From Candidatus Aenigmatarchaeota archaeon (GTDB taxonomy: Archaea > Aenigmatarchaeota > Aenigmatarchaeia > QMZP01), in NCBI GenBank assembly GCA_043824495.1, contig JBDRSV010000024.1:91056-155055 (forward strand): a stretch of DNA of 64,000 nucleotides, given 5' to 3'. Every line of letters begins with the position of its first letter. Position 1 is the stretch's first letter. A program made the position numbers and the translations under genes. The notes below the pieces were generated by a model that saw nothing but the letters and a program-made list of their open reading frames with translations, did not search any database and was not told where the DNA came from. Positions 868-50,525 of the stretch are shown here, one piece after another.

Positions 868-2388
868 GTGATTTTCATGACTCAACAGGAAGCCCTCACA
901 AGGCTTACAAAACTCTGGGGAAAGGCTGCACTTCTCGATTCTTGTGGCCAGCTTCTGGGATGGGACGAACGAGTTTACATGCCCAGAAAGGGTGCAAAAC
1001 ATCGCGCAGATCAGCTTGCCATGGTGGCGGGAATGGTGCATGAACTCCAGGTTGATCCCAGAATCGGTGATCTTCTGGGTGCAATCAGCGGAAGTGATCT
1101 GGTTCGCGACCCGAGTTCAGACGCTGACGTCATCGTCCGCGAAATCGGCCGGGCTCACTACCGGCTGGTGAAAATGCCGCAATCGCTGGTCGAAGAGATC
1201 ACGCGCGTCACTACGCTCGCCCAGGGTGCGTGGGGCGAGGCGCGCGCCAACTCCGACTTCAAGTCGTTCAAGCCATGGCTGGAGAAAGTCATCGCACTGA
1301 AGAAGCAGGAAGCCGAAGCCGTCGGGTACAAAGACGATCCATACGATGCCATGCTCGATGTTTACGAGCCGGGCGCAACGGTCACCTCAATCGACGAGAT
1401 CTTCGCCAAGAACCGTGAAGAACTCGTGATGCTCCTCGATAAGATCAAAGGCTCGGGCAAAGGCCCCGACACCACGATCATCACCCGTGAATATCCAATC
1501 GAAGCACAGAAGACATTCGGTCACGAGGGCGCTGCCGCAATCGGTTTCGACTTCGAGCGCGGTCGTCTCGATATCACGACCCACCCCTTTTGCGCCGGCA
1601 TCGGCCCCGGCGATACGCGCATCACCACTCGTTACGATGTCCATCATTTCCCCGGCGCGTTCTTCGGTATACTGCACGAGGCCGGACACGGTATCTACGA
1701 CCAATGTCTGCCCGATGACAAGTTTGGCAGTCCGCTGGGTGAGTATATCTCGCTCGGTATCCACGAGTCGCAGTCGCGCATGTGGGAAAATATGGTCGGA
1801 CGCTCACGCGCCTTCTGGACACGCATGTATCCCAAAGCGCAGAAGGCATTCCCCAAAGCGTTAGGCGATGTTCCGGTTGACGCGTTCTATTGGGCGATCA
1901 ACGACGTCCGTCCGTCGTTCATCCGTGTCGAAGCCGACGAGGCCACTTACAACCTGCACATTCTGCTGCGTTTCGAAATGGAGCGCGCGTTCTTCTCGGG
2001 TGACTTGAAGGTCGATGACATCCCGGGCGCCTGGAACGAGAAATTCAAATCATACTTCGGCATCACCCCGCCCAATGACGCGCAGGGCTGCATGCAGGAC
2101 GTTCACTGGAGCGCGGGACTGGTTGGCTATTTCCCGACCTACGCACTTGGCAATCTCTACTCTGCGCAGTTCTTCGCCAAAGCCAACGAGGATCTCGGCG
2201 ACCTCCACGCCCAATTCGCCAAGGGCGAGTTCGCACCGCTGAAGAAGTGGCTGCAAGACAACATCCACAGCCACGGCCGCCGCTATCTCGCATGCGAGCT
2301 GGTCGAACGTGTCACCGGCAAGCCGCTCGGCTCCGAAGCGGTGATGGCGTACATGAACAAGAAGTTCGGTGAACTCTACGGCTTCTGA
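868..2388 (+). CDS. Carboxypeptidase Taq-like metallopeptidase (M32 family)
   Basis: HEAGHGIYDQ carries the HEXXH zinc site, and HESQSRMWEN is present, as in the Thermus carboxypeptidase Taq family. Length ~500 aa, GC-rich. Confidence 0.85.
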   Translation: MIFMTQQEALTRLTKLWGKAALLDSCGQLLGWDERVYMPRKGAKHRADQLAMVAGMVHELQVDPRIGDLLGAISGSDLVRDPSSDADVIVREIGRAHYRLVKMPQSLVEEITRVTTLAQGAWGEARANSDFKSFKPWLEKVIALKKQEAEAVGYKDDPYDAMLDVYEPGATVTSIDEIFAKNREELVMLLDKIKGSGKGPDTTIITREYPIEAQKTFGHEGAAAIGFDFERGRLDITTHPFCAGIGPGDTRITTRYDVHHFPGAFFGILHEAGHGIYDQCLPDDKFGSPLGEYISLGIHESQSRMWENMVGRSRAFWTRMYPKAQKAFPKALGDVPVDAFYWAINDVRPSFIRVEADEATYNLHILLRFEMERAFFSGDLKVDDIPGAWNEKFKSYFGITPPNDAQGCMQDVHWSAGLVGYFPTYALGNLYSAQFFAKANEDLGDLHAQFAKGEFAPLKKWLQDNIHSHGRRYLACELVERVTGKPLGSEAVMAYMNKKFGELYGF

Positions 2389-2539
2389 GAAGTACAATAC
2401 ACCGAATAAACCAGAGTCACTAAAACCCGATAACCTTTAATCCCAGTGGCTAGTAGTGTCGGTCGCTGGGCTGTGGTTCGAGGGAGTTCGCCACAAGAGG
2501 CTCGATGTTCAAGGAGACTGGACTCGAAAGGTTGACAAC

Positions 2540-2947
2540 ATGATGAGACGCATGATTTTCTTGTTGCTGTCGCTTCTGCTGGTGATCAGTTGCTCAGACT
2601 CGGATACTTCAGACGGTTTCTTCCCAAGTCTTGACGAGCAGTATGCTCAGGGTCTGGGAATGTCTTCTGACAAACCATTTCAGGGATTTTATGATCTTAG
2701 TAGTGGATGCAAGATCATACCTGGTGGTCATGTCGAAATTTGCTGCAGAATCCAAGGCGGTCTTAGTCTGGCTGTCAAGGACGCAGTGAATCGCTCCGAT
2801 CGACTAAAAATAGAATTCGGTGGTATCGAGAGCGTCTTATTCGAATCTGGTCAGACAGAAGACACCTTGCGATTGACGGCGATTTCCGAAAAACACCGCG
2901 AGAAAAGGTTGTACATTGTGGTGGTGAACAGTGCTGTGGGGACATAG
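2540..2947 (+). CDS. Putative lipoprotein (hypothetical)
   Basis: MMRRMIFLLLSLLLVISCSDS is a signal peptide with a lipobox Cys. GC-rich, bacterial-style. Confidence 0.5.
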   Translation: MMRRMIFLLLSLLLVISCSDSDTSDGFFPSLDEQYAQGLGMSSDKPFQGFYDLSSGCKIIPGGHVEICCRIQGGLSLAVKDAVNRSDRLKIEFGGIESVLFESGQTEDTLRLTAISEKHREKRLYIVVVNSAVGT

Positions 2948-3009
2948 GTTCTCGCCGCGAATCCAAACAGGTATTCAAGAAGAGTCAATTCCTTCTGCCT
3001 GTTTTTAAT

Positions 3010-3030
3010 TTGTCTAATTAAAGGGATATA
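3010..3030 (-). repeat. Junction motif copy 1 (TTGTCTAATTAAAGGGATATA), at the right edge of a GC-rich block
   Basis: Inverse orientation of the 21-bp motif that recurs at 17661, 20177, 36287 and 56969. A hairpin precedes it on the GC side (AAACAGG...CCTGTTT, 2970-3008). Confidence 0.6.
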
Positions 3031-3110
3031 GAAAGAAAAAATTAGAAATGTTCAGACATATAAACCTTATAAACTATAATGCTCAATAATTGGTATAATT
3101 CGAAAGGAAA

Positions 3111-3458
3111 ATGACATATATGAAAGCTAAGACAGATATTGGGGTTGGTTTGAAGCCACCTGAGCATAAATGTGAAGAAGAAAACTGTGCATGGCACGGG
3201 AAATTGCCTGTCAGAGGCAGAGTGTTTAGAGGTAGAGTTAGGGCCGCTAAATCTCAGAAAACAGCTATAATCGACTGGGGATTCCATAGATTCGTGCCTA
3301 AATACGAGAGATATGAGAGAAGAAAATCAAGAGTGACTGTTCATAATCCTGGCTGTATGAATGCTAAAGAAGGGGATAATGTTGTAATAGCAGAATGCAG
3401 ACCAATTTCAAAGACAAAGCACTTTGTAATTGTTGGTGTGCAAAAGGAAGGAAAATAA
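3111..3458 (+). CDS. rps17: 30S ribosomal protein S17 (uS17)
   Basis: The sequence matches the archaeal S17 fold and length, and L14 follows immediately. Confidence 0.85.
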   Translation: MTYMKAKTDIGVGLKPPEHKCEEENCAWHGKLPVRGRVFRGRVRAAKSQKTAIIDWGFHRFVPKYERYERRKSRVTVHNPGCMNAKEGDNVVIAECRPISKTKHFVIVGVQKEGK

Positions 3459-3459
3459 T

Positions 3460-3858
3460 ATGAAAGCGATATCAGCCAATATGACAAGGTGTTTGCCTGT
3501 GGGAGCAAGAATTAATTGTGTAGATAATTCAGGAGCAAAAATAATTAGAATAATTTCTGTAAGAGGATTTAAAGGTATACGAAGAACAATTCCTTCAACT
3601 GGTATTGCTGGTTTATTCCAGTGTAAAGTACTCAAAGGAAATGAGAAAGTTCGACATCTGGTTCATAAAGCTGTTATTGTAAGACAAACAAAAGAATTCA
3701 GAAGAGCAGACGGAACAAGAGTGTCATTCGAAGATAATGCAGCTGTATTAGTGGATGACAAAGGGGATCCAAAGGGTAATAGCATCAAGGGTCCTATTGC
3801 AAGGGAAGTTGTTGAGAGATTCCCAACAATTGGTAAGATTGCAAGCACAGTAGTTTAA
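3460..3858 (+). CDS. rpl14: 50S ribosomal protein L14 (uL14)
   Basis: Start MKAISANMTRCLPVGARINCVDNSGAK, with the NCVDNSGAK signature. The internal Met start gives ~132 aa. Confidence 0.9.
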   Translation: MKAISANMTRCLPVGARINCVDNSGAKIIRIISVRGFKGIRRTIPSTGIAGLFQCKVLKGNEKVRHLVHKAVIVRQTKEFRRADGTRVSFEDNAAVLVDDKGDPKGNSIKGPIAREVVERFPTIGKIASTVV

Positions 3859-17754: not shown

Positions 17755-19629
17755 TTACTTCAGAAGCGTCATCTTTTTGCTTTCCGTCAGGCTGGCCGTT
17801 TGCAACCGATAGAAGTACATACCGGACGCGACGGCCTTACCGTAGCGGTCGGTTCCGTCCCAGCTAACCTGATGTGTTCCTTCGGGCTGGGACCCGTTGA
17901 CGAGAGTGGCAACGTTGCGGCCGAGGATATCAAAGACCTCTAGCTTTACGTCTCCTCCCTGAGTCAACTGATAGGAAATCACGGTTCCGGCGTTGAAGGG
18001 GTTCGGGTAGTTCTGGTTCAAGCTGAATGATGTAGGAACGGCTCCTGTTGTCTTGTACGCGATGTTCAGCGTACCTAATGGAATCCACCCAGCCGGAACT
18101 GTCCGGCTGTTGTTGATCTCGTCAGCTATCGTTTTGGCCAACTCGTGATCGCCGAATGGATCGTCGATCAAGTTGTCGCAGTATGTTACCGCCTGTGACA
18201 CAGTCGCGCCGTCATCGCTAATCACAGCGGTTTGTGCCAGTTTGCCGCTAGCGACATTGAGTAGCAAAGCCATGAGTTGCTGTCTGGCTCGATCAATCAT
18301 GTCAACGCTGCCCTTGAGGTTCAGCAACGTCTTCGCGACTTCGAGCTTGTCTTCACAAAGATCCGACACGGGTGGATCGTACACGACGACCTCGTTCACT
18401 GCGTTCGAGTTGAAGTGGCCCGCGATGAGGTCGAGATAGCTACACAGAGTTGAAGCATCGATTTGCGCGCGGCCATTCCCACCAGTAGCGACGCCGACGT
18501 TGTGTTTCCAGAAGCCGATTGTTCGTTGTTCTCCAGCGTCTGACGGGCATCCCAATTCAAAGTCGATTTGGGCTGTGCCTTCACAATCGAGATCGACGGA
18601 CTGTTCGCTCGGAAATGCCGTATACCCGAGGGGGCCAACAAATGATACCATGTAGCTGGCCTCACCCGGGAGGTTCTCGAAATCGTAGTAACCGGCTTCA
18701 TCAGTCACAGCCGATTCTACAAGTACACCGGTGGCATCGAAGACATCAATCGTGATACCAAGAACAGAGCAGTCAGCACTCAGTGTGCCCTCAATTGCGG
18801 CGAAGCATTCTTCCTCTCCACCTCCGCATGCACACGTTCCATCTTCCACCTCAATGGCGGTGATGGTGTTGTCGTAGGCGTCCTTTGACCAGACGACGGT
18901 CAACGGCGCGAAGTTGATGACGTCGCATTCGAGATCCTCATCCCGACCACCGATCGTCGCGAAGTCACTGAGATACACGCCCGTTGTCTTGTCAATGCGA
19001 ACGATGTTGCCCAGACCATCGCGCCCGATGTAAAGGGTGTTCCCCGTCCCAACAATAACACCACTTATTCGATCCAGTGTATTGCCGGCCGCGTCGGTCG
19101 GATACAACGTTCCCAGATAGGCTCCCGAGCCCGCATCGAAGTGGTCAATGCCCGTTGATACATCATCGGAAACCCAGACACTGTTATCCGTCGCATCAAA
19201 GCCAATGCCGTCGATGAAACAGAAGCCCGGTGTTACCACAGAAAACTGGAAAGTGGCTACGCCGGTGGTGGGATCGATGAGATACACGTTCGCCGGACAT
19301 TCGTTGTCACTGCCTCCCCAGATCATGTTGCGCGTATTGTCCCATGCAATAGCGCCGATCGAAACTGGTGTGCCATCCGGTTTGAAAATGGAAACGAAGC
19401 CGAGATCGGTGCCGAATTTGTCTATCGAGTAGAGAGTTGGGTCGAAAGAGTTGGTGTAGAAAATCACACCATCACATCCAACTGCAACACCGATACCGAC
19501 ACCAGACGAGCTTGGAACAGGAACTGTGACGTTCGTGATGACATCACCGGGAGCTGCCATTGACGTAGCGGTGATAGCGGTGAAGAGGCAGAACACAACA
19601 AGCGCAGTGAAAGCTGTGAGACGCTTCAT
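17755..19629 (-). CDS. Large secreted protein with beta-propeller-like repeats, a carboxypeptidase-regulatory-like domain and a T9SS-type C-terminal sorting domain
   Basis: Signal peptide MKRLTAFTALVVFCLFTAITATSMA. The C-terminus NYPNPFN...VFDILGRNVATL...GMYFYRL matches the Por/T9SS C-terminal-domain consensus. GC-rich, bacterial (FCB-group-like). Confidence 0.7.
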   Translation of the reverse strand: MKRLTAFTALVVFCLFTAITATSMAAPGDVITNVTVPVPSSSGVGIGVAVGCDGVIFYTNSFDPTLYSIDKFGTDLGFVSIFKPDGTPVSIGAIAWDNTRNMIWGGSDNECPANVYLIDPTTGVATFQFSVVTPGFCFIDGIGFDATDNSVWVSDDVSTGIDHFDAGSGAYLGTLYPTDAAGNTLDRISGVIVGTGNTLYIGRDGLGNIVRIDKTTGVYLSDFATIGGRDEDLECDVINFAPLTVVWSKDAYDNTITAIEVEDGTCACGGGEEECFAAIEGTLSADCSVLGITIDVFDATGVLVESAVTDEAGYYDFENLPGEASYMVSFVGPLGYTAFPSEQSVDLDCEGTAQIDFELGCPSDAGEQRTIGFWKHNVGVATGGNGRAQIDASTLCSYLDLIAGHFNSNAVNEVVVYDPPVSDLCEDKLEVAKTLLNLKGSVDMIDRARQQLMALLLNVASGKLAQTAVISDDGATVSQAVTYCDNLIDDPFGDHELAKTIADEINNSRTVPAGWIPLGTLNIAYKTTGAVPTSFSLNQNYPNPFNAGTVISYQLTQGGDVKLEVFDILGRNVATLVNGSQPEGTHQVSWDGTDRYGKAVASGMYFYRLQTASLTESKKMTLLK

Positions 19630-23949: not shown

Positions 23950-25992
23950 TTAACCAATGAATTCAACCTTTTCAAAACTGCCGTTTTCTTCAAATTTGTC
24001 TAATGTTGATACGAAAATTATTACTTTTTTCTTGTCTTCTTTACAGATTCTAGCTGCTTGTTGTATTACCATGTTCTTGATTCTGTCTGAAGCACATATG
24101 AAATGATTGCTTTGTTTCAAGTCCTGATAAATTAATTCTCTATCATCTGTGTCTTCAACCATTATAGTTAATTCTTTTCCATCGTTCTGTAAATATATTC
24201 TGTTACCTTCTTGTTCACTCTTCCATCCGACTTCATTAAAGGTCTGCATGATACCTGTTAAGTTCAATTCTTTTTTCTGTGTTGAGTTACCAAATTTATT
24301 AGTGAAAACTTTCTCTCCTATATTTGTAAGAAAGTAATAACATAATCTATTCTTCTTAACTTTAGCATCAGCTGAATCAACTAATCCGTTATAAGTTAAG
24401 TTCTCAACCTTTTTCTTGAAAGTTGCTCCTGACATTTTTACATTTGTGTATATCTGAGATGTGTAAGCAGCACTACCATTACCAATGGTTTTCATCATAG
24501 CCCACTCTTGTTCTCCTAAATCCTCAATTGGAAGAGAGTTTATGAATTCTTCTTCCTTTACTGGAGGAGGTGAGTAGCTATCTTCTTTAGCTATTCTGTC
24601 TTTCATGTGCTCTCTGATATCATCATCTACAATAGAGTTCTTAACCAGTTTAGCCTTGTCGAATTTTACAAGGAATGGTTCTGGGAAATTCATAGAGTGT
24701 CTCAAAAGCATGAAACCGTGACCTACTGGCAGTCTTCTTAGATACTTACCTTCTTCTCTAGAATCAAGACCAAGCATGTTTGAAGCGTCTTGAATATCTG
24801 AAGTATGTTTTGTATCCAAACCTAGATTCATGTATATATGAGTAGAAGTATTACCAATTGCTGGATATGAAACTAAAGATGGATGCTGATCTATGTATAT
24901 CATTCCTAATCCTAATTCTCTAATTTCTCTAAATATTAATTCTACAACGGTTTCTGATCCTAATTTGGCAGATTTTTCTCTGTTAAGAACATGATGAGCT
25001 TCTTCCATCACTATACATCCTATGACTTCTTCTTTTCCGCCTTCTACGAGTAACCAATCTCTTATCCACTGTAGAATTATTTCTATGATAAAGCTCTTAT
25101 CATTAACATCAAGAGCATCTAATTCTAGAATTGTTACCTTTCCTTTCTTGAAGAAATCAGATGGTTTTATACCTTCTACACAGTCGAATATATGACCTGT
25201 GTCTTTGAAGCATAATGACTCTAATGGTCTTTCAGCTGTTGCTAACCAGTTTCTTTCTCTTGTTGGCAGCTTACCTTCTGCATATTCTGCTAAGTAATCT
25301 TTAAGGTCAAACAGTGTTGGATTTTTCTTTTCCTTGAAAACTCCATCTAAAGCTTTCAAGATTACGTGTCTTCCACCACCGAGTAACCAGTAAGAATGAT
25401 CGAATATTGAAGAGAACTCTTTCATCCACTGTGTTTGACTAATTCCTTTAGGACCTTTCAGTGGATTGAATTTGAAAGGAGCTACGCCTCTTCCGATTGT
25501 GTAAATATCTATTTTGTCTTTAATTTTAGTTGATAGTAAATCTTTATAATTTCTCTTAGAGAAATCAAATATCAAAACAGGAATATCCTTTTCTGCTAAT
25601 TCTTCAATTAAGTTATATGAAATATTTGTTTTACCATAACCAGATGAACCAAATATTCCTATATGTGTAAGTAAGTTTTTCTCTTCTAGCATGATTGGAT
25701 ATAAACCCTTTCTTCCGTATAAAACATCACCTAATCTAATTGTTCCTTTAGCTGCTGCTTCTTGGCTAGGAGGTTCCATTAGTACTGTATCTCTTAGATC
25801 TTCATCAGCAGAAACTGCGGCTTTTATAACATCAAGTAGTTCGAAGATTCTTTGTCTTACATCTTCGTTTCCAACTAAGTAAGCTTTACTTAATCTCAAA
25901 GCTTTGTCTTTACCCAAGATTGGAGTAAGCTTCTTAATTTCATCTGCAATTAGTTTTTCTTGAATATTAATCATTTGTACCACCCAAATCAT
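23950..25992 (-). CDS. HerA/DUF87-like P-loop ATPase (FtsK-HerA superfamily) with a C-terminal wHTH-like extension
   Basis: Walker A GIFGSSGYGKTN and Walker B-like IVMEEAHHV. 680 aa, in an AT-rich archaeal-like segment. Confidence 0.7.
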   Translation of the reverse strand: MIWVVQMINIQEKLIADEIKKLTPILGKDKALRLSKAYLVGNEDVRQRIFELLDVIKAAVSADEDLRDTVLMEPPSQEAAAKGTIRLGDVLYGRKGLYPIMLEEKNLLTHIGIFGSSGYGKTNISYNLIEELAEKDIPVLIFDFSKRNYKDLLSTKIKDKIDIYTIGRGVAPFKFNPLKGPKGISQTQWMKEFSSIFDHSYWLLGGGRHVILKALDGVFKEKKNPTLFDLKDYLAEYAEGKLPTRERNWLATAERPLESLCFKDTGHIFDCVEGIKPSDFFKKGKVTILELDALDVNDKSFIIEIILQWIRDWLLVEGGKEEVIGCIVMEEAHHVLNREKSAKLGSETVVELIFREIRELGLGMIYIDQHPSLVSYPAIGNTSTHIYMNLGLDTKHTSDIQDASNMLGLDSREEGKYLRRLPVGHGFMLLRHSMNFPEPFLVKFDKAKLVKNSIVDDDIREHMKDRIAKEDSYSPPPVKEEEFINSLPIEDLGEQEWAMMKTIGNGSAAYTSQIYTNVKMSGATFKKKVENLTYNGLVDSADAKVKKNRLCYYFLTNIGEKVFTNKFGNSTQKKELNLTGIMQTFNEVGWKSEQEGNRIYLQNDGKELTIMVEDTDDRELIYQDLKQSNHFICASDRIKNMVIQQAARICKEDKKKVIIFVSTLDKFEENGSFEKVEFIG

Positions 25993-28942: not shown

Positions 28943-28983
28943 TCAACGGCTTGGAAACCAAGTCAAATCAACGACAATGAAAG

Positions 28984-36935: not shown

Positions 36936-37589
36936 ATGACAAAACCAATCGCACTATCGGCAAGTAGCATAAGACTTTTCCTAGAGTGCCCTCGATGCTT
37001 CTGGCTGCATATAAACAAGAAGGTAAGAAGGCCTTCGGGAGCTTTCCCATCGTTGCCAGCGGGTATGGACAAGATACTCAAGATACACTTTGATGAGTAC
37101 AGGGAGAAAGGCAAGATACCAAAAGAGCTAGAAGGCAAATTCAGCGGCAAGCTTTTTGGTGATACAGAAATATTGGGTGTGTGGCGTAACAACAGAAAAG
37201 GGCTAAGACATACAGACAAAAAGAGTGGCATTATTCTCATGGGAGCGTTAGATGACCTCTTTGTCACCAATAATGGACAGTTTGCACCATTGGACTTCAA
37301 AACAAGAGGCTATCCCCTCAAGGAAGACACACATGAACACTATCAGCACCAGATGGACATTTACTCATATCTTCTAGAAAAGAACAACATGAAGACTGCA
37401 GGCTATGCAATACTCATATTCTACCATCCGAAACGTGTTACAAGCACATGCAATGTTGAGTTTAATGCAGACCCTTTGAAGGTGAAGACCAGCATAAAGG
37501 ACGGTGAGAAGATATTTTTGGATGCTGTAAAATGCCTTTCGGGGAAAGAGCCCAATCCTGGCAAGGACTGTGGGTTTTGTAGATGGTGA
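36936..37589 (+). CDS. Cas4-like/RecB-family PD-(D/E)xK nuclease with an Fe-S cluster cysteine set
   Basis: N-terminal CPRC. Motif II GALDDL, motif III LDFKT, QhxxY (HQMDIYSYLL), and C-terminal C...CGFC. No CRISPR array nearby. Confidence 0.65.
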   Translation: MTKPIALSASSIRLFLECPRCFWLHINKKVRRPSGAFPSLPAGMDKILKIHFDEYREKGKIPKELEGKFSGKLFGDTEILGVWRNNRKGLRHTDKKSGIILMGALDDLFVTNNGQFAPLDFKTRGYPLKEDTHEHYQHQMDIYSYLLEKNNMKTAGYAILIFYHPKRVTSTCNVEFNADPLKVKTSIKDGEKIFLDAVKCLSGKEPNPGKDCGFCRW

Positions 37590-39329: not shown

Positions 39330-42056
39330 TTATATTTTCTCTATTATTTTCTTCTCTTCTTCTGTTATCCCGTATATTCTATATATATATGAATCTATTT
39401 CTTTGTCAATTCTTTGTATCTCATTTTCTATATGTACTCTTCTATCCGTTTTTTTGTCACCTATCTCATTTAAACTGTTATTCATAGAAATTATTTTATC
39501 AACTAAGTTAATGACATCTTTCTCTGTTTCTTTACTAACTAGTTTAATAGGAAATTTCTTCGTATTAGCAATTAGTATTTTTTGGAATAGCCTTTTTGAA
39601 GGATCTAAATATTTCTCTTTATGGTAAAAAGTCATTAGCTTTGAGTTTAAAATTGCTAGAATATATTTAATTTGATCAGAACTACCGTTCTTGGGTATTA
39701 TATTAAATCCTATTTGTGTGTTATATAACTCCTTTTCGGTATATCCAGCGTATATTTTTGGAGGTTTACCACTGATAATCTGTCTCACGACTATACGAGG
39801 TTTTAAGAAAAATCTCTGTTCTCTGGGAGCGCCTAGCCATTTCCCATAACTAATATATTCTGTTTGGTTCCATTTTATACCATATCTTATAATGCCTGCT
39901 CCAGATAAGAGGGGTTTGAAAGTTTCATTCTTTTTTGTTTCTGAATGAAAAACTTTATTTTTTATTTGATCTTGTGTATGACCTTTGTATTTATCATAAG
40001 GTGTTAATCCTAGCGAGAAATCGCACAAATCTATCAAAGGTTTTGTACCTTCTTCAATCTTTTTAATTATTTTACTTATAGTAGGATTTCGAGATATATT
40101 GATAATGTTATCACGACTCCAGTCTAGTTGATTAAATGTTGTGTATGTATTGCAATTTTCTTTGTCTATGAAACTTATCTTTTCTTCACTAGGATAAATC
40201 AAAAGTTCACATTTAGTACTTTTTGTTGGCTTCTTTTTTTGGTATATGAGTATTATGGTCTCTACTTTAGCCTTCTCAAAAACATTATCAGGAAGTCTCA
40301 CAATCTTTTTAAGAGTCGCTTCGTTTAATAGTAATTTTCTTATTTTTGAATATGATTGATTATATAGGATTGAATTCGGTATAATAAAACCGAAGTATCC
40401 TCCATTCTTTAGTAGACGGAAAGATTTTTCAACAAAAACTGAGTACAGATTCATTCTATTTTCTACTGTTTCATATGCCGAAAATAAATATTTAACAATT
40501 AGAGGATCTAGCTGTTTTATATCTACATACGGTGGATTACCAATTATAATATCAAAGGAACCTCCTTCAAAATCGTCTATCCATTTAAAAGAGTCTAATC
40601 CAGCAACCTCTTCAGCATCTATTAAACTGTTTCCATGACATATATGAGTATCAATCTCTGTGGGTAGTTTTCTTCCCTTTTCTGCAGCCTTCAGTAATAA
40701 ATTCAGTTTTGTTATTTCTACTGCTTTATTGTCTAAGTCCACACCGTAAAAGTTATTCTTAAGCATGTGTGTTTTAACTGAATAAATTCCCTGATAATCT
40801 AATCTCATTTGTTTTGCTTCTGGTTTTTGCATCATACTATTCAACAAATGATCAAAAGACTTTATTAAGAATGAACCAGAACCACACGCAGGGTCTAATA
40901 TTTTAATTTCTAATGGCTTCGTTTTTTTATCTGTTATTAACTCTCCTAAAGTGTTTCTAATAATATAATCTACTACATAAGTCGGTGTGTAATAAATGCC
41001 TTGTTCCTTTCTATGTAGTCTCGAATCTCTTAATTGAGCTTTCCCTGATTTCTTTTGATCAAGAATTAGACCCAAGTATTGCTCATAAACTTGACCTAGA
41101 ACATCAGCATCTATCCAGTCAAAATTATAAATGTATGTTTTGTCTTTCGATTCGTATAAATAATAAATTAAATTTTTAATTATAGATCCGTTGATATTGA
41201 TTGTATCACAATCATTATCTCTCGATATAGCAAACAAACCACTGTTATATACATCATCATATGTTTTGAATATTTCCTTCAGTTTTGTGTAAGCTTTACT
41301 ATCATGTAGGTGTTTTATATCGCTAAGTATAACACCATCAGGATTTATGTTTATGTCTTCACAGCGTCGAATAAATATAAGTCTGTCTAGAATTCTCTGG
41401 ACTATATCATCCTTCTCATCAATAGAATACTTTTTTGCATAGGTTTTCTCAATGTCGCTAGCAATTAAACTTCTTATAAGCATCAAATCATTAAGCAGGG
41501 TTTTATCGATAGAAACCCTTTTCTTCAATCTACCTTCATCTTCAGCTTTTTTAAGGATAATATTTTCTTCAAAACTGTTTTTTGATAAGAAAAGCAAATC
41601 TTCAAAGCTGTTGATATAATCTTCTGGGGTATTGAAAACTCGGAATTTATTTCTTATAGAATTTTCTTCCTCTACACAAAATATTCTTGTTTCTTCAAAG
41701 TTGGTTGATACTGCAAAAGGTACTCTCTTTGATAGTGCATATGATATTACTTGTTTATCCGCTTCTCTATCTAAAGATACACCAACCTTTTTGACTTCAA
41801 GAAAGAAAACAGTTCTGCCATTAATCTTAAAGGCGTAATCTGCGCGTCCTCTTTGACTTCCTCTATGTGCTTGAGACTGTTTATCAAAATCATTTCGCTC
41901 CCAACCAAGCAACTGAAAAAGAGGTTCAATTAATCTAGTTTCTGTATCAGCTTCTGACAGTTTTTTATATGATTCTTTGTCAGCGTTGAATTCGTTAATT
42001 AATTTTTGAATTTCCTCCTTAATGATCTCTTTATCCATATAATTAGAATGAAACAA
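39330..42056 (-). CDS. Single-chain restriction-modification enzyme (Type IIL/IIG, MmeI-like): PD-ExK nuclease, then a gamma-class N6-adenine methyltransferase, then a target-recognition domain
   Basis: The N-terminus has D...FFLEVKK (PD-ExK). Methyltransferase motif I is ILDPACGSGSFL and motif IV is IIGNPPY, in gamma-class order. 908 aa. Confidence 0.75.
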   Translation of the reverse strand: MFHSNYMDKEIIKEEIQKLINEFNADKESYKKLSEADTETRLIEPLFQLLGWERNDFDKQSQAHRGSQRGRADYAFKINGRTVFFLEVKKVGVSLDREADKQVISYALSKRVPFAVSTNFEETRIFCVEEENSIRNKFRVFNTPEDYINSFEDLLFLSKNSFEENIILKKAEDEGRLKKRVSIDKTLLNDLMLIRSLIASDIEKTYAKKYSIDEKDDIVQRILDRLIFIRRCEDININPDGVILSDIKHLHDSKAYTKLKEIFKTYDDVYNSGLFAISRDNDCDTININGSIIKNLIYYLYESKDKTYIYNFDWIDADVLGQVYEQYLGLILDQKKSGKAQLRDSRLHRKEQGIYYTPTYVVDYIIRNTLGELITDKKTKPLEIKILDPACGSGSFLIKSFDHLLNSMMQKPEAKQMRLDYQGIYSVKTHMLKNNFYGVDLDNKAVEITKLNLLLKAAEKGRKLPTEIDTHICHGNSLIDAEEVAGLDSFKWIDDFEGGSFDIIIGNPPYVDIKQLDPLIVKYLFSAYETVENRMNLYSVFVEKSFRLLKNGGYFGFIIPNSILYNQSYSKIRKLLLNEATLKKIVRLPDNVFEKAKVETIILIYQKKKPTKSTKCELLIYPSEEKISFIDKENCNTYTTFNQLDWSRDNIINISRNPTISKIIKKIEEGTKPLIDLCDFSLGLTPYDKYKGHTQDQIKNKVFHSETKKNETFKPLLSGAGIIRYGIKWNQTEYISYGKWLGAPREQRFFLKPRIVVRQIISGKPPKIYAGYTEKELYNTQIGFNIIPKNGSSDQIKYILAILNSKLMTFYHKEKYLDPSKRLFQKILIANTKKFPIKLVSKETEKDVINLVDKIISMNNSLNEIGDKKTDRRVHIENEIQRIDKEIDSYIYRIYGITEEEKKIIEKI

Positions 42057-44027: not shown

Positions 44028-45038
44028 ATGCTTATGAAAACGAAACAACTTACTTTAGATCGAGACTGGAGCCAATATAACTTGGCCCAAACACAGGAGA
44101 AACTTCTATTCATGAGAATACTGAGTGATGCCGTTAATTCCATGAATATAGAATATACATACAAAGGCAACGGAAGACCAAGCATAGGCATAGAGGACAT
44201 GATAAAAGTCCTCGTGATAAAGGTTTTCAACGGCTTCTCGCAGAGGAGGACAATACCAGATTTGTATATGGCTAAAGGTTTAGGCTACATACCTGAAGTC
44301 CCACACTTCAATTCCATAAGCAACTACTTCAACAGCACTGAATTGACTTATTATCTTGAGCAGCTCTACAGGATATTGGCTATGCCATTCATTCCTATAG
44401 AACAGTACTTTGCTATCGATTCTACTGGTTTTGGTAAATACAATACCAATTGGACTGCCAGCAAATATAAAAACGCAAGCATGAGAAGCTTCAACAAGCT
44501 GCATATAATATGCGGAGTGCGGACAAACATAATTGTGATAGCTAAAGTGACAGATGCACACCAACACGATTCTCTTCAGTTTCCTAAGATGCTTAAGGAG
44601 ACATGCAAAATATTCACAGTAAAAGAGATCTCTGCAGACAAAGGATATCTAGCACTCTATAATGTGAATGCAGCTAAAGAATTAGGCGTAGTACCCTACA
44701 TAATGCCCAAGAAGAACACAAAGTTATATTCCAAAAAGAGATGGGTGGATGGAGAGGCATGGGATAGAATGGTACTCATGTGGAGACATAAAGAGGAAGA
44801 ATTCAGAAAACACTACCATCTGAGATCGAATGTTGAGAGCAGCTTCTCAATGATGAAGAGGAAGTTTCTTCCTTTCATAAGGAGTAAGAACCCTATTGCA
44901 CAGAAGAATGAAATTCTGGCTAAGGTTGCTTGTCACAATATATCCGTTCTTGTCCACTCAATCTTTGAATTGGGTTTAAACATAGATTTTAAAAATATAG
45001 ATTCAACAGATGAAAGGAGGGAATATTATGACGCCTGA
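44028..45038 (+). CDS. IS4/IS5-superfamily DDE transposase (DDE_Tnp_1)
   Basis: AIDSTG (D), ISADKGY (D), HYHLRSNVESSFSMMKRKF (the Y-x2-R-x3-E-x6-K signature). A hairpin GAGACTGGCGA...TCGCCAGTCTC lies just upstream. Confidence 0.7.
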   Translation: MLMKTKQLTLDRDWSQYNLAQTQEKLLFMRILSDAVNSMNIEYTYKGNGRPSIGIEDMIKVLVIKVFNGFSQRRTIPDLYMAKGLGYIPEVPHFNSISNYFNSTELTYYLEQLYRILAMPFIPIEQYFAIDSTGFGKYNTNWTASKYKNASMRSFNKLHIICGVRTNIIVIAKVTDAHQHDSLQFPKMLKETCKIFTVKEISADKGYLALYNVNAAKELGVVPYIMPKKNTKLYSKKRWVDGEAWDRMVLMWRHKEEEFRKHYHLRSNVESSFSMMKRKFLPFIRSKNPIAQKNEILAKVACHNISVLVHSIFELGLNIDFKNIDSTDERREYYDA

Positions 45039-45513: not shown

Positions 45514-46281
45514 ATGGAACCAATTATATGTTTTGGGCAACAGCCTAATGGAATATTTCCTAAGAATTTCTTTGTGGCTAAGATAGATTCAGCTAGAAAG
45601 CTTCAGCGGGAAATTGGTGGAAAAATAATATGGTTCTGTCACGATTCAGATCATGATCACAGAGAAACAAAAACAAGAATAGAATCTAATATGCATAAAG
45701 AAGGTTTTGTTGATCTTAACTTCTCGATTAAGAACAAAACCCAAAGGAAATATACTCCTTTATACCTAAAAGAAATAACTCCGGAATGGAAAGAAGAAAC
45801 AAGAAAAATTCTAGAAAGAATTGTTTCACTAGAATTGCTTATAATATTCTATTCTGTGAATGAAACAAGAGTAGCGGATTTCTGTATAGAGATGTATAAG
45901 AGAATGGGATTACTTGATGGTATAGATATTGTAAGAAGTAGTGATCCTAGGTTTAGAGAAGAAGCAGAGAAGCCAGAAGAAGAATTCATAGATGTGGAAT
46001 ATGATGGAGAAATAGTAAGAGCTAGGTGTATGAAAGATGGGTTATATTTACATGAAGGCGGAGATAGTTACAAGAAGATGGCGGATATGTGTGATTATTC
46101 AAAGAAACAAGTCTCCGCTGCTAGAGATTCTAGGTTTCCCTGGATGCAATCTGTAATTAAAGCAACTCATTATGTGTATGGAATGTCAGAGAAAGAATAT
46201 ATAAAGAAACAACAAATAGAGATGGTTCCTAGAGATGAAATAGATAAGAAAGATTTTGCATTTATTCAATTACTTAAATAA
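45514..46281 (+). CDS. Hypothetical protein
   Basis: Complete 255-aa ORF, convergent with the PIG-L deacetylase gene. Confidence 0.4.
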   Translation: MEPIICFGQQPNGIFPKNFFVAKIDSARKLQREIGGKIIWFCHDSDHDHRETKTRIESNMHKEGFVDLNFSIKNKTQRKYTPLYLKEITPEWKEETRKILERIVSLELLIIFYSVNETRVADFCIEMYKRMGLLDGIDIVRSSDPRFREEAEKPEEEFIDVEYDGEIVRARCMKDGLYLHEGGDSYKKMADMCDYSKKQVSAARDSRFPWMQSVIKATHYVYGMSEKEYIKKQQIEMVPRDEIDKKDFAFIQLLK

Positions 46282-46944
46282 ATCTAAATTAAGTTCTAGT
46301 GGTCTATCAACTATGAAGGATTCTCCATATTTAGAACCAATTAGACTACCTACACTTTGTCTATAGAAGCTTAGTCTATCTACAACACCTTCTGTTTGTG
46401 ATTTGTGACAATTTGCTAATTCTTTCCATTTCTCAAAATAGTCTGTTACATCACATACTAGATTAGGTTCTAGATGTCTTGGAATCATGTAATAAATTAC
46501 ATGTGGAACAAAATGATGATCATGGTCTAATTTGATATTCTTGAATTTAGCTAATCTCAGTGCATGTTTCACTATATTTCCTGTAGTGAAATGATCAGAG
46601 TGAGCTACTCCATCGTGATGCCCTGCATTGTTCTCATAATATGGAGCAAATACAATATCTGGTTTATGCTTTCTAATAACGGAAGCTATTTTTTCTCTAC
46701 TTTTATAATTGTCTTCTATTTGACAATCTTTGAAACCGAGGAATTCGAAAGAAGCTCCTGCGAATTTAGCAGCTTCCTCAACCTCTTTTTCTCGTATTTC
46801 AGGAGAACCCTTTGTCCCTGCTTCACCCTTGGTTAGTACAGCTAAGCTAACCTTGAAACCCTGGTCTACTAGCTTGAGTAGGGTCCCACCCATAGCAAAT
46901 TCTACATCGTCTGGATGAGCACCAAAAATTAGAACGCTTTTCAT
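46270..46944 (-). CDS. PIG-L/LmbE-family deacetylase
   Basis: N-terminus ...IFGAHPDDVEF..., His/Asp-rich, 224 aa. Confidence 0.75.
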   Translation of the reverse strand: MKSVLIFGAHPDDVEFAMGGTLLKLVDQGFKVSLAVLTKGEAGTKGSPEIREKEVEEAAKFAGASFEFLGFKDCQIEDNYKSREKIASVIRKHKPDIVFAPYYENNAGHHDGVAHSDHFTTGNIVKHALRLAKFKNIKLDHDHHFVPHVIYYMIPRHLEPNLVCDVTDYFEKWKELANCHKSQTEGVVDRLSFYRQSVGSLIGSKYGESFIVDRPLELNLDLFK

Positions 46945-47034: not shown

Positions 47035-49560
47035 TTATTTTATGATATGAATTGCAACTGATTTTTCATATCCTTTTATGAAATCTTCTACCATGTCTCT
47101 TGCTGTAGTGTCTGAATGTTGTATTGGTGGATGCTTCATGAAATAAGCTGATGGACCTTCTAAGTAGCCTCCGATACCTCTATCTTTTGCTATTTTTGCA
47201 CAGCGAATACCATCTATTACTACACCAGCAGAATTTGGAGAATCTTCTACAGAAAGTCTGAGTTCTAAATTAAGAGGAACATCTCCGAATTTTCTTCCTT
47301 CCATTCTAATGAAACAAATCTTGTTATCTTTCTGCCATGGAACATAATCACTTGGTCCAATATGAATATTTTCTGGTTCTAGTGGTATTGGTAATTGAGA
47401 CTGAACAGCTTCTGTCTTGCTGATTTTTTTGCTCTTGAGTCTTGATCTCTCAAGCATGTTTAGGAAATCTGTGTTATGAACTAATATGTTTGAACAAATA
47501 AACCGTTCAAATGGTTTTGTGCTTATGTCATAAACATACACATCTTTTAATTTTATTTTTCTAATGTTTTTTATCTTAAGGAAGCGAGTATCGCCTGTAC
47601 ATAATTGTTTAATTTTTTCTCTTTCAAACTCACTTTTAACTTTATCCAATTGAGAAAGAACTATATGAGTTCTAATTGATCCGTGTTTGTACCACGTTGT
47701 TGATTTTATTTTCCATTTTTTCAAAAGTTTTATATTTGGTATTCGATGTGTTCCATAACGTTTTAATTTATTATTAGTATTGAGCATTGCCTTTTTCTTG
47801 TAATCTTGTAAAAATCCTACTTTATTTATGAACAATTCCATATCAATTTTTGATGATATTAATCCATGCCAAGCATACCCTAGTTTGCTGTTATATGCAG
47901 TTCTAGTGCTACTATATCTTTCCTTGAAAATTGTTGAATTTATTCCTAATCTCAAAAACAATGTCTGTATATCATTCAAAAGGTCACGAGAAACAGATGT
48001 CCATCTTATCTGTTTTCCTGTAACACCACCATCACCACTTAAATAACCTCTTAAAACTAATGATATTTGTCTATCTGATAAATTAAAAATCCATTCTGGT
48101 ATCCGTTTTGTATAAGCATTTCCCCCTAAACCAATAGCTAACTTAAATATTTTAGACAATATTTTTGAATGAATCCTTACACTAATACCGTCATTTCTAA
48201 CGCTATATCCAATATTAAATCTATCTGTTAAACTATCTATAAGGTACATACACTCAGGTTCAGCACCGCATGCAATTTCTATATTAGATGAACCTTCTCT
48301 ATCATAATTACCATCTGCAATCCATAAACCAACCAACTGTAAAAGATCATCTGTAATTGGGAATTTAACAGGAATTTTTATTTCAGGATGACCACGGACA
48401 TTTATATGACCGTCTGATACACCATCAACTAATAATTTATTACTATATGGACTTAGATCTATACTTTCAATTTCTTCTGATTTAGCATGTGGTAACACTC
48501 TAGGAACAGCAATATACGTTTCATTTCCTTTTAGTATTTTTACAGGGATTTCATTTAATATACCGTCATCGCTTAATGTAAAGACATTATGATCCCCTGT
48601 GATTTTTATTGTCCTACCTTCTTCGGTAGTTATTTCATAAATAGGTTCAGATACCTTATGTCGTATTAGTGCATTTATATCTGATAGGACAACGTTATAA
48701 TTATCATTTATAGTAAAACATCGCATATTTTCATTAATTTCTTTCATAATTACAATGTCTTTTCCATCAGATCTTTTCTTACCATAAAGCTCCAAATAAG
48801 AGTCTATCAAATCTCCAATTTTAACCCGCTTTAATTGATTGTTTATAACTACAGGAACCTCCTGATCTCCTGTTACACTGTTCCCCCCAGTATTCAATTG
48901 ATATGTCCTATCAATCTTTATTCCTCTATCAGAGAATAACTTTGTTAAAACTCTATGTGTAATTGTTGCACCTAATTGACTCTTAATATCATCACCAATA
49001 ATAGGAATTCCTTTTTCCTTGAACTTATCACCCCATTCAGGATTTGATGCAATGAAAACAGGCATACAGTTAATGAATCCAACACCTGCATCTAAACAAG
49101 CTTGTGCATAGAACTTAGTTGCTTCTTCACTTCCAACAGGCATGTAATTAATTAGCACATCAGCCTGACTATCCTTCAACACTTGAACAACATCCACATT
49201 TTTTTTCCCTGATTTTTTAAATCTATTATCTTCAGGATAATTATTCATATGATCTGCTACACCATCTAACACAGGTCCCATCTGAACTTCCACTCCAATG
49301 TGAGGAACATCCTTATAAAATATAGTAGTGTTGTTAGGCTTTGCGAATATTGCTTCCGACAAATCTTTATCTACCTTTCTCTCATCAATATCAAAAGCAG
49401 CTACTGGTTTAATATCAGATATTTTATATTCACCTAGAATATTATGCATTAGACCTGATACTGGTTTACTAGAATCTACATCTTTGTAATAGAATAATCC
49501 CTGAACAAGACTAGAACAACAATTACCAACTCCAGCAAATGCAACCTTTATTTCTGTCAT
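47035..49560 (-). CDS. ino1: myo-Inositol-1-phosphate synthase containing an intein
   Basis: The N-terminus [17 protein letters not shown] and the exteins ...YQLNTGGN / [20 protein letters not shown] match MIPS. A 469-aa insert carries LAGLIDADG motifs. Confidence 0.85.
47473..48879 (-). mobile_element. Intein with a LAGLIDADG homing endonuclease domain, inside ino1
   Basis: Starts SVTGDQEV (block A-like) after GGN. LAGLIDADG-type motifs LVGLWIADG and LRGYLSGDG. Ends ...NILVHN followed by Thr (+1). Confidence 0.7.
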
Positions 49561-49626
49561 GTTTTACACCTGTAAAATAGTTGGTCAAGAAAGTATATAT
49601 ACTTTACGTGTGTAAATTATTCAATA

Positions 49627-49938
49627 ATGAAACCTTTAGAGAGACTAGAGAAATTGAATACAAGTGATTGTTTGTGGGTCTACATTCTTAGTATACTGAA
49701 TAAGACTCCTATGCATGCATATGCGGTAAGAAAAGAAGTGGAAAAAAGGTTTGGTTTTACACCAGGAAATGTGACATCTTACAAGGTTTTATATTTACTC
49801 AAAAGAAATGGTTATGTAAGTAAGAGTAAATATGGTAGAACAATTGTATACGACATAACTACAGATGGAAAGAAAGAACTGAAAAAAGCAGCAGGCTTCT
49901 ACAGAAGTCTTGCTCAAAAGCTTGAGGCGAGAAAATGA
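49627..49938 (+). CDS. PadR-family transcriptional regulator
   Basis: CLWVYILSILNKTPMHAYAVRKEVEKRFGFTPGNVTSYKVLYLLKRNGYV is the PadR wHTH. Confidence 0.7.
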   Translation: MKPLERLEKLNTSDCLWVYILSILNKTPMHAYAVRKEVEKRFGFTPGNVTSYKVLYLLKRNGYVSKSKYGRTIVYDITTDGKKELKKAAGFYRSLAQKLEARK

Positions 49939-50525
49939 CACTGTATAAGAAAAGAAAAAAATTCGATTCACATTCAAAAAAACTAGGATCGTTTTTCTCT
50001 AAGTTTGGTCTATCTCCAAATCAGTGGACTATGGTTGGTTTTATTCCAGCCATAATAACTGCTTATTTTCTGTATGTAGGAAGCTTGTCTCTAGCTGCTT
50101 TATTCTTCATAATTACTATAGTAGTTGATGTGATAGATGGTTCTGTTGCAAGACATATGGGAAAATCAACTAAACTAGGAGCATATTTGGACACTGTGGT
50201 TGATAGATATGTAGAACTCATAATCATCATAGGATTGCTATTCGTATCAATGCCTGTTATACTTCTACCCATGTATGCATGGATCTTCTTGTTCTTATTC
50301 GGATCAATGATGACTACGTATGTAAAAGCAGCTGCAGTTGAAAAGGGTTTAACTACAAAGGAAATCAAAGGTGGACTGCTTGAAAGAACAGATAGAATGG
50401 TTATTCTGCTGATTGGACTTCTTTTGGGTATAGTTAATCCATTATATTTGAGTTATGTTATTATCTTGTTAGCAATACTCACAAACATTTCTGCTTTACA
50501 AAGATTTTCTATTGCAACGAGTTAA
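49935..50525 (+). CDS. CDP-alcohol phosphatidyltransferase (candidate archaetidylinositol-phosphate or di-myo-inositol-phosphate synthase)
   Basis: DVIDGSVARHMGKSTKLGAYLDTVVDR matches D-x2-DG-x2-AR...G-x3-D-x3-D. Multi-TM, and adjacent to ino1. Confidence 0.75.
   Translation: MTLYKKRKKFDSHSKKLGSFFSKFGLSPNQWTMVGFIPAIITAYFLYVGSLSLAALFFIITIVVDVIDGSVARHMGKSTKLGAYLDTVVDRYVELIIIIGLLFVSMPVILLPMYAWIFLFLFGSMMTTYVKAAAVEKGLTTKEIKGGLLERTDRMVILLIGLLLGIVNPLYLSYVIILLAILTNISALQRFSIATS

Follow-up and report, generated by a model that had tools for sequence, protein, structure and literature searches.

An intein with LAGLIDADG motifs in the inositol-phosphate synthase gene of an Aenigmatarchaeota genome

The inteins of archaea lie mostly in proteins of replication, repair and nucleotide metabolism (67% + 8% of archaeal inteins; PMC4760082), and VirB11 is an established archaeal host with 21 inteins (Table 3 of the same paper). 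Inositol-phosphate synthases (MIPS) are recognized by a set of conserved blocks (N..GN.D, SK...K, K, D; PMC5614600, Table 3), and the closest well-described member, Ino1 of Mycobacterium tuberculosis (1GR0), has no intein. In the window (the whole 64-kb stretch of DNA that was analysed), which comes from a Candidatus Aenigmatarchaeota genome, the ino1 gene is interrupted by one, adding MIPS, a lipid-precursor enzyme, to the list of intein hosts. A literature search found no published account of a MIPS intein, and the main text of the Novikova 2016 intein census does not mention inositol. The first-pass annotation of this DNA had called inteins in ino1 unusual, which holds for the literature and for curated models but not for sequence space, where at least 64 protein clusters from several archaeal phyla carry an intein at this same site. 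We regard the MIPS intein as an ordinary selfish element that is mechanistically standard, undescribed in the literature as far as we found and recurrent in metagenomes.

The interrupted ino1 gene and its insertion site

The ino1 precursor is an open reading frame of 841 aa on the minus strand (47035..49560) with zero internal stops, and a Logan contig from SRR26275509 encodes a protein that is 100% identical. In Pfam the precursor matches Inos-1-P_synth (4e-32) in two separate stretches, and in NCBIfam it matches both the inositol-3-phosphate synthase model TIGR03450 and TIGR01445, which models the N-terminal domain of inteins. The N-extein (aa 1-227; 48880..49560, minus strand) ends in YQLNTGGN, contains the TIGR03450 stretch at 4-227 and aligns with residues 14-233 of M. 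tuberculosis Ino1; the C-extein (aa 697-841 plus stop; 47035..47472, minus strand) starts at Thr+1 of TDFLNML and aligns with residues 234-367. Joined as they would be after splicing, the two parts align with 1GR0 end to end without a gap (E 1.5e-133), and every conserved block residue is kept, with the catalytic blocks NTGGN-TD, SKKISK, DNK and EDSPNSAG all aligned. The spliced extein spans the whole of TIGR03450 (1-355 of 355), yet its 499 bits fall under the equivalog cut-off of 638, and in this it differs from TIGR03450-type MIPS. The predicted host protein is a bacterial/actinobacterial-type inositol-3-phosphate synthase in a DPANN genome. M. tuberculosis Ino1 differs in being free of the intein and in its +1 residue, which is Met in place of Thr (GGNMDF) and would be unable to act as a splicing nucleophile.

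Alignment to the M. tuberculosis enzyme sets the insertion point between N233 and M234 (N354/N355 in yeast), one residue ahead of the invariant Asp (D235 in M. tuberculosis, D356 in Saccharomyces cerevisiae) of MIPS block D, the residues of which are taken from PMC5614600 (Table 3). Before splicing, the precursor should have no activity, since the intein parts the invariant Asn of this block from its invariant Asp. The proposal that the insertion lies between GGN and TDFLNML is confirmed by the closest MIPS orthologues (70-77% identity, 359-407 aa, from Aenigmarchaeota and Nanoarchaeota): 120 of 120 have no intein, GGN(T/S)DF is contiguous in all of them, and the intein is therefore an in-frame insertion. 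At the DNA level the intein-free site reads CAATTGAATACTGGGGGGAAC followed directly by ACAGATTTCCTAAACATGCTT, the insertion point lying between the two, and this is the predicted homing target. Some longer MIPS proteins (P0066-P0069, 495-590 aa) were considered as mini-intein forms and rejected, as they are internally duplicated MIPS with GGN(M/T)DF intact; the duplications are probably assembly artefacts.

It is scarcely credible that the insertion is dead, with ino1 a pseudogene and the locus of no use to the organism for making inositol phosphate. Two facts would fit gene decay: the genomes of DPANN archaea are reduced and in many cases lack lipid biosynthesis, and there is an IS element at a distance of 2 kb. 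Against this stand the frame that runs unbroken across 841 codons, the presence of every splicing residue, an extein that retains its identity to intein-free orthologues together with all of its MIPS block residues, and a partner transferase that is intact and syntenic.

Intein anatomy and predicted splicing

The insert (precursor aa 228-696; 47473..48879, minus strand) had been described as a 469-aa LAGLIDADG intein that starts with Ser, ends in His-Asn and is followed by Thr at +1, and each part of this description is borne out by HMMs, by the sequence itself and its conservation in 64 homologous inteins, and by an AF2 model of high confidence. The junctions are QLNTGGN/SVTGDQ on the N-terminal side and CSNILVHN/TDFLNML on the C-terminal side. 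The HMM comparison that had been suggested identifies the insert as an intein, with Intein_splicing (PF14890) matching precursor aa 239-696 at 5e-20 (72 bits, the cut-off being 35.8) alongside TIGR01445, and LAGLIDADG_3 (PF14528) matching within the intein at 6e-18 (65 bits).

All of the blocks lie on the minus strand. Block A (SVTGD; 48865..48879) provides Ser1, the N-terminal nucleophile, which is present in 64 of 64 homologous MIPS inteins, and block B (48580..48609) holds the TxxH motif, formed by Thr94 and His97, both invariant across the 64. The first LAGLIDADG motif (48307..48336) carries the catalytic Asp189 and has G184, W186, A188, D189 and G190 invariant; the second (48025..48054) carries the catalytic Asp283 and has G278, Y279, S281, G282, D283 and G284 invariant. 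Blocks F and G (47473..47541) contain the Asp at F:4, the penultimate His468 and the terminal Asn469, and their invariant residues are V449, Y450, D451, R459, F460, C462, S463, H468 and N469. The +1 residue that follows the intein is Thr in 63 homologues and Ser in one. In the block numbering of the InBase convention, the residues that define the class are Ser1, Val at B:12, Asp at F:4 and Val at G:5, which rule out the mechanisms of class 2 (Ala1) and class 3 (Trp at B:12, Cys at F:4, Thr at G:5).

The AF2 model of the intein (pLDDT 90.3, pTM 0.91) has the Hint fold, with an rmsd of 1.8-2.8 Å to mini-inteins and a TM score of 0.7 to full inteins. Foldseek returns TliVMA first (E 2e-25, TM 0.72/0.77), then PI-PkoII, PI-PfuI, PI-SceI and I-DmoI, and the TM scores of TliVMA, PI-PkoII and PI-PfuI range over 0.66-0.77. 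The endonuclease part has a pair of LAGLIDADG helices that both carry a catalytic acid, in an αββαββα core whose fold matches I-DmoI and PI-PfuI. Anatomy, conservation, fold and insertion point are all observed directly, and the insert is very probably a full-length intein of the canonical class-1 type, whose homing endonuclease has two LAGLIDADG motifs, and it occupies a single site in the catalytic block of MIPS that is conserved the most.

Splicing, which we infer from these residues, would start from the translated 841-aa precursor, intein included. An N-O acyl shift at Ser1 would be followed by attack of Thr+1 on the resulting ester; Asn469 would then cyclise with the aid of His468, and an O-N shift would leave a 372-aa MIPS, in which GGN-TDF is the native motif, and release the 469-aa endonuclease. 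Splicing through the oxygen nucleophiles Ser1 and Thr+1 may be slow or condition-dependent. One could go further and see a domesticated regulatory intein, whose splicing would depend on temperature, pH, substrate/NAD+ or membrane state and serve as a post-translational switch for inositol-lipid head-group supply, a proposal that we consider improbable. The insertion in the catalytic block, and hence an inactive precursor, would suit such a switch, as would an intein almost as conserved as its extein (mean pairwise identity among homologues 51.5% vs 57.5%), and two reports document conditional protein splicing in other archaeal inteins (PMC5790916, PMC11409957). However, the closest orthologues manage without an intein, the junctions are free of cysteine, which excludes the common redox-switch mechanism, and transcriptional control is already on offer from a PadR regulator next to the gene.

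Neighbouring genes and the inositol pathway

The first-pass annotation had reported a PadR regulator and a CDP-alcohol phosphatidyltransferase downstream of ino1. Both genes are present, but they lie on the plus strand, divergent from ino1 and upstream of it across a 66-bp control region (49561..49626). The PadR-family regulator (103 aa; 49627..49938; PF03551, 3e-11) is followed by the transferase (196 aa; 49935..50525; PF01066, 60.7 bits). Within the control region, TTTAC-N4-GTAAA palindromes at 49563-49576 and 49603-49616 stand on either side of the palindrome AAAGTATATATACTTT, and these are the 2 matches to the pattern in the 64-kb window, for which 0.09 would be expected. The exact pattern was not found in other ino1 loci, and looser TTTTA-N6-TAAAA palindromes occur in the ino1 intergenic region of L004, L005, L006, L013 and L035. 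We infer that the TTTAC-N4-GTAAA palindromes are a candidate operator, and the divergently encoded PadR would probably control the ino1 cluster. A PadR homologue lies upstream of ino1, and divergent from it, in ~14 related loci, and the transferase adjoins ino1 in ~17 loci and lies directly downstream of an intein-bearing ino1 in ~13 other genomes. This conserved neighbourhood supports the earlier link between ino1 and inositol lipid synthesis. The next gene downstream of ino1 encodes a PIG-L-family de-N-acetylase (46270..46944, minus strand; PF02585, 5e-28), which is BshB1-like at 155 bits, under the NCBIfam cut-off of 182.5; it is not syntenic with ino1 in the other loci compared, and its membership of the ino1 system is uncertain. 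An Rfam scan of the whole window returned no RNA family.

The best NCBIfam match of the transferase, the top of 12 models, is NF040950 (archaetidylinositol-phosphate synthase), whose cut-off of 180 bits it misses with a score of 139.7. The CDP-alcohol motif D65-x2-DG-x2-AR-x8-G-x3-D-x3-D90 is present at residues 65-90, and the nearest solved structure is M. tuberculosis PgsA1 (6h53, 4e-14). The protein is best read as working like an archaetidylinositol-phosphate synthase that scores below the strict NF040950 equivalog threshold, an assignment supported by its conserved adjacency to ino1. Two products had been put forward for the pair of MIPS and transferase, of which archaetidylinositol-phosphate stands and di-myo-inositol-phosphate does not. 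It is very improbable that the cluster yields di-myo-inositol-phosphate, a compatible solute, in place of a membrane lipid: although the transferase shows weak similarity to IPCT/DIPPS enzymes (NF041135, 64.8 bits; 4mnd, 4e-9), the archaetidylinositol-phosphate and phosphatidylinositol-phosphate synthase models are far ahead, the latter at 101.3 bits; Pfam and NCBIfam find no cytidylyltransferase domain in its 196 aa; the MIPS-fused NTP-transferase probe P0071 finds no match in the window; and the genome GC of ~33% does not suggest a hyperthermophile. The transferase is thus probably an archaetidylinositol-phosphate synthase rather than a di-myo-inositol-phosphate enzyme, and the spliced MIPS would deliver inositol-3-phosphate to this synthase for the formation of inositol phospholipid head-groups.

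Distribution, mobility and comparison with other inteins

Carriers of the MIPS intein are found among Aenigmatarchaeota, Iainarchaeota, Micrarchaeota, Altiarchaeales, Hadarchaeum and Hodarchaeaceae, and the homologous inteins are 460-488 aa long. Intein and extein have discordant histories in several comparisons. Micr41 and Bilam10 have exteins that are 82% identical and inteins that are 43% identical, the Hadarchaeum loci L015 and L016 have exteins at 94% and inteins at 64%, and Micr41 and bact13 show the reverse, with inteins at 63% and exteins at 50%. In one lineage (L035) the same MIPS site holds a mini-intein that has lost the core of the endonuclease, and in another (L005) the intein contains a frameshift. 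The presence/absence distribution and the discordant histories are direct observations, and the shared site, the discordance, the empty alleles and the mini-intein are together the mark that a mobile intein leaves. The endonuclease of this intein would cut intein-free ino1 alleles at the GGN/TDF codons, and repair of the cut allele would copy the intein in. The identity discordance can in part be explained by faster intein evolution. In neighbour-joining trees the major intein clades largely mirror the extein clades, so that much of the distribution could be vertical and transfer only occasional.

This last pattern raises the question of a vertically inherited relic, an intein that still splices, since MIPS could not work otherwise, but has lost homing and persists only because precise deletion is rare. 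We consider this unlikely. The mirrored clades are as such a relic would leave them, an IMG/VR scan of viral contigs found no copy of the MIPS intein (distant LAGLIDADG relatives only, at 29% identity or less), and the mini-intein and the frameshift show decay in two lineages. On the other hand, both catalytic Asp residues and the LAGLIDADG residues around them are invariant over 64 sequences that are merely ~51% identical overall, intein length is constrained, the intein/extein discordances are clear, and the predominance of intein-free alleles among the closest orthologues implies repeated gain or loss. A mobile intein remains the preferred reading. More speculatively, and with little likelihood, the MIPS intein could be more than a parasite: a conditional-splicing switch that gates the synthesis of inositol phospholipid head-groups, given that it lies within the catalytic block and is conserved almost to the level of the extein, or, as a separate matter, a tracer of direct gene flow between DPANN cells and their hosts or neighbours, given its discordant histories and its spread over DPANN lineages (Aenigmatarchaeota, Iainarchaeota, Micrarchaeota), Altiarchaeales, Hadarchaeota and the Asgard Hodarchaeaceae.

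This one well-conserved site, for which full-length alleles are many, empty alleles plentiful and a single mini-intein is on record, lends itself to the study of homing and intein decay in archaea that have not been cultivated. The element also provides a cysteine-free (Ser1/Thr+1) intein, along with a predicted LAGLIDADG enzyme whose target of ~40 bp is predictable. Some intein-bearing MIPS proteins are labelled [quoted passage not shown] by the JGI pipeline, and several NCBI entries are named just "hypothetical protein" or "LAGLIDADG family homing endonuclease"; with such uninformative names, the inositol-lipid capacity of DPANN and other archaeal MAGs can be missed.

Among known systems, the solved intein-endonucleases TliVMA (7qss), PI-PkoII (2cw7), PI-PfuI (1dq3) and PI-SceI (1vde) share with the MIPS intein a Hint domain, LAGLIDADG motifs and an extra DNA-recognition region. 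The archaeal ones match its model at TM 0.64-0.77 (Foldseek), and PI-PkoII also matches by sequence (3.5e-17). They differ in having 10-18% identity to it in structural alignment and in their hosts, which are the V-ATPase A subunit, DNA polymerase and ribonucleotide reductase and include no lipid or sugar-phosphate enzyme. The intein form of the tetraether lipid synthase Tes (NF045703) is likewise an archaeal membrane-lipid enzyme with a similar endonuclease region (68 bits), but its host is an unrelated radical SAM protein and its match to the ino1 precursor is limited to aa 391-548; NCBIfam holds an "exception" model for Tes and none for intein-containing MIPS.

The nearest relatives outside MIPS are the inteins of archaeal type II/IV secretion ATPases (VirB11/KlbA-type; PF00437, T2SSE). 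These lie in a different host at a different site, between IED and T(L/R)EL in the Asp box of the ATPase, and the score falls from 679 to 295 bits on passing from the MIPS clade to them. Likeness between the DNA of the two homing sites, which might have caused an ectopic jump, was sought and none was found beyond RAY/AC (the slash marking the insertion point). The protein likeness of the ATPase inteins from DPANN archaea runs over the whole length, at 26-38% identity to the MIPS intein, and takes in Ser1 ("SVxGD"), the His-Asn end, Thr+1 and the full-length LAGLIDADG architecture.

An intein in the catalytic block of inositol-3-phosphate synthase

The ino1 gene, encoding inositol-3-phosphate synthase (MIPS), occupies 47035..49560 on the minus strand as an open frame of 841 codons with no interruption, and the locus was also found on a Logan contig from SRR26275509. 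The Pfam match to Inos-1-P_synth is split into two stretches, and the precursor also matches Intein_splicing (aa 239-696, E 5e-20) and LAGLIDADG_3 (aa 500-582, E 6e-18); in NCBIfam, the N-terminal stretch of TIGR03450 (inositol-3-phosphate synthase) stops at aa 227, TIGR01445 (intein N-terminal domain) is matched, and models of intein-bearing RpoA'', PolII and DnaB match in part. These comparisons bear out the first-pass annotation, which had read a 469-aa LAGLIDADG intein with Ser1, a terminal HN and Thr at +1, all of which the translation places where it had put them. Cuts at GGN/S and HN/T yield an N-extein of 227 aa, an intein of 469 aa (47473..48879, minus strand) and a C-extein of 145 aa. 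The intein has 29.9% GC against 34.2% and 35.6% in the exteins (GC3 18% against 21-22%), which is weak evidence at best of foreign origin.

Spliced in silico, the extein is a 372-aa protein that aligns end to end with Mycobacterium tuberculosis (Mt) Ino1 (PDB 1GR0, E 1.5e-133) and spans 355 of the 355 TIGR03450 positions, its 499 bits lying below the equivalog cut-off of 638. Inteins usually insert into highly conserved active-site motifs. The insertion lies between the equivalents of Mt N233 and M234 (yeast N354 and N355), one residue before an invariant Asp (Mt D235, yeast D356), and the flanks of the proposed junction are indeed contiguous in intein-less MIPS, as GGNMDF in Mt Ino1 and as GGN(T/S)DF in the best 120 matches to the extein. 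[quoted passage not shown]

In an alignment of the 64 homologous MIPS inteins recovered, residues that are invariant or nearly so include Ser1 of block A, Thr94 and His97 of the block B TxxH motif, G184, W186, A188, D189 and G190 of LAGLIDADG motif 1, G278, Y279, S281, G282, D283 and G284 of motif 2, V449, Y450 and D451 of block F, and R459, F460, C462, S463, H468 and N469 of blocks F and G. All but one of the 64 have Thr at +1, the exception having Ser. Two cysteines, C54 (~48718..48720) and C462 (~47494..47496), are invariant in all aligned MIPS inteins, and the splice junctions are cysteine-free. The block residues rule out class 2, which is marked by Ala at position 1 where this intein has Ser, and class 3, since Trp B:12, Cys F:4 and Thr G:5 are absent; the intein thus reads as class 1. 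AlphaFold2, given an alignment of 15 sequences, produced a confident model (pLDDT 90.3, pTM 0.91), and Foldseek against the PDB retrieves the homing-endonuclease-associated TliVMA intein (E 2e-25, TM 0.72/0.77), with PI-PkoII, PI-PfuI and PI-SceI, while the Hint part matches mini-inteins at an rmsd of ~2 Å and the endonuclease core matches I-DmoI. Independently of fold, a PDB sequence search returned PI-PkoII (3.5e-17) and TFIIB mini-inteins. Judged by its residues, nothing in the predicted mechanism departs from the textbook class-1 LAGLIDADG intein.

The inositol-lipid gene neighborhood

The first-pass annotation had set a PadR regulator (49627..49938) and a CDP-alcohol phosphatidyltransferase (49935..50525, 196 aa) downstream of ino1; both lie on the plus strand and are transcribed divergently from it. 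The transferase has a complete CDP-alcohol motif at residues 65-90, and among solved structures Mtb PgsA1 is closest to it. Of the two products suggested for its pairing with MIPS, archaetidylinositol-phosphate is favored, as the best NCBIfam model is the archaetidylinositol-phosphate (AIP) synthase NF040950 (139.7 bits, under the cut-off of 180), followed by bacterial PIP synthase (101 bits). Di-myo-inositol-phosphate synthesis is not supported, since IPCT/DIPPS scores far lower (64.8 bits) and a cytidylyltransferase domain is absent from the transferase and, by tblastn probe, from the 64-kb window. The pathway product is most likely an inositol phospholipid.

A transferase homologue lies directly downstream of intein-bearing ino1 in related loci (for example L001, L002, L004, L005, L008, L010-L012 and L041), and a PadR homologue lies divergently upstream of ino1 in ~14. 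This synteny argues for a functional unit of ino1, AIP synthase and PadR, which would have been rearranged in the window genome. The 66-bp ino1/padR intergenic region (49561..49626) carries two TTTAC-N4-GTAAA palindromes on either side of a 16-bp TATA-like palindrome, AAAGTATATATACTTT; the whole window contains just these two TTTAC-N4-GTAAA sites, where 0.09 is expected. A kindred TTTTA-N6-TAAAA palindrome is found between padR and ino1 in five further loci, which belong to different lineages (L004, 5262-5315; L005, 1707-1722; L006, 1925-1940; L013, 2959-2974; L035, 859-874), making these palindromes a candidate conserved PadR operator of the inositol-lipid cluster. The next gene downstream of ino1 encodes a PIG-L-family de-N-acetylase (46270..46944, minus strand; PF02585; BshB1-like at 155 bits, below cut-off) that, by analogy with glucosaminyl-archaetidylinositol synthesis, might act on a GlcNAc-inositol lipid; its synteny with ino1 recurs in 0 of 41 related loci.

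The wider window is patchy in base composition, with blocks of 48-52% GC (1-4000, 18000-24000, 28000-36000) in a 31-36% background. These blocks code for ORFs without Pfam matches and for a 624-aa protein (17755..19629, minus strand) that combines FlgD_ig with a Por_Secre_tail/T9SS-type sorting domain, an unexpected find in an archaeon; the blocks may represent foreign islands, integrated elements or chimeric assembly. Genes of mobile or defence type near ino1 are a type IIG restriction-modification fusion (Eco57I/N6_Mtase/TaqI_C; 39330..42056, minus), a DDE_Tnp_1 transposase 2 kb from ino1 (44028..45038, plus), a PD-(D/E)XK nuclease (36936..37589, plus) and a HerA-like ATPase (23950..25992, minus).

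Distribution and mobility

A full-length search found the MIPS-intein architecture in 65 clusters at 90% identity, every one with the insert at GGN/S…HN/T(S) and an intein of 460-488 aa; clustering at 50% leaves essentially a single representative of the group (679 bits, next score 295 bits). The window is itself part of a Ca. Aenigmatarchaeota MAG, since its ArgRS shares 100% identity with an NCBI protein from a MAG so named. Judged by source names and by scanning GTDB species representatives, carriers belong to Aenigmatarchaeota, Iainarchaeum, Micrarchaeota/Bilamarchaeaceae, Altiarchaeales, Hadarchaeum and Hodarchaeaceae (Asgard); two further contigs, labelled 'bacterium' and 'Patescibacteria', are suspected to be mis-binned. 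Four database proteins of 495-590 aa (P0066-P0069) were rejected as mini-intein MIPS: within each, part of the catalytic region is duplicated, probably as a strain-variant assembly artefact.

The best 120 matches to the spliced extein (70-77% identical) are nearer than any intein-bearing homologue and are all intein-free, at 359-407 aa with GGN(T/S)DF uninterrupted, several being named Aenigmarchaeota or Nanoarchaeota. Intein and extein similarity are only moderately correlated (Pearson 0.53, Spearman 0.30, 1830 pairs), and certain pairs disagree strongly: the Micrarchaeota locus L041 is 82% identical to L010 in extein and 43% in intein, yet 50% and 63% to L013, and two Hadarchaeum loci (L015, L016) share 94% of the extein and 64% of the intein. 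Locus L035 (JASEJS010000076.1, labelled Patescibacteria) holds a 255-aa mini-intein (1619..2383) at the same GGN/TDF site, which lacks the equivalents of ~134-346, both LAGLIDADG motifs included, and retains the Hint halves and C-terminal helical region; because this 2.9-kb contig also bears a divergent PadR, it is probably archaeal and mis-binned as CPR. In L005, from an 'archaeon' MAG (~2420..3830), one frameshift ~50 codons into the intein may be a real inactivated allele or a sequencing or assembly error.

Inteins pass through a cycle of gain, endonuclease decay and loss. The empty alleles, discordance and decayed copies match this cycle, and sequence comparison gives evidence that the MIPS intein is mobile now or was recently. 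The main intein and extein clades broadly co-diverge in NJ trees, which argues for transfer that would be occasional rather than rampant.

Comparison with known inteins

No paper describing a MIPS intein was found in the literature searched, and NCBIfam has exception models for intein-containing GyrA, RtcB and Tes and none for MIPS; automated JGI annotation already calls some members 'myo-inositol-1-phosphate synthase/intein/homing endonuclease'. We think it very improbable that the intein controls lipid head-group synthesis as a conditional-splicing switch, or that it traces gene flow between DPANN cells and their hosts.

Outside MIPS, every one of the nearest relatives is an intein carried by a PF00437 type II/IV secretion ATPase from DPANN or other archaea, with 26-38% identity across the whole intein; inteins are already known from archaeal VirB11-type ATPases (PMC4760082, Table 3). 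Two T2SSE ATPase genes from DPANN/Thermoproteota MAGs (L023, L030) carry two inteins each, at or near Walker A and at the IED/T site, and the top representative ATPase matches run to 2,000+ aa, in which as many as 6 stretches match. An ancestral jump from a VirB11-type ATPase host to MIPS would be plausible; the DNA of the two target sites was compared and no likeness found. The ATPase inteins resemble the MIPS intein in Ser1, His-Asn and Thr+1 but occupy their own site, …IED/T(L/R)EL…, rather than GGN/TDF. The novelty lies in the host gene and its insertion site; the predicted mechanism is that of a standard class-1 LAGLIDADG intein.
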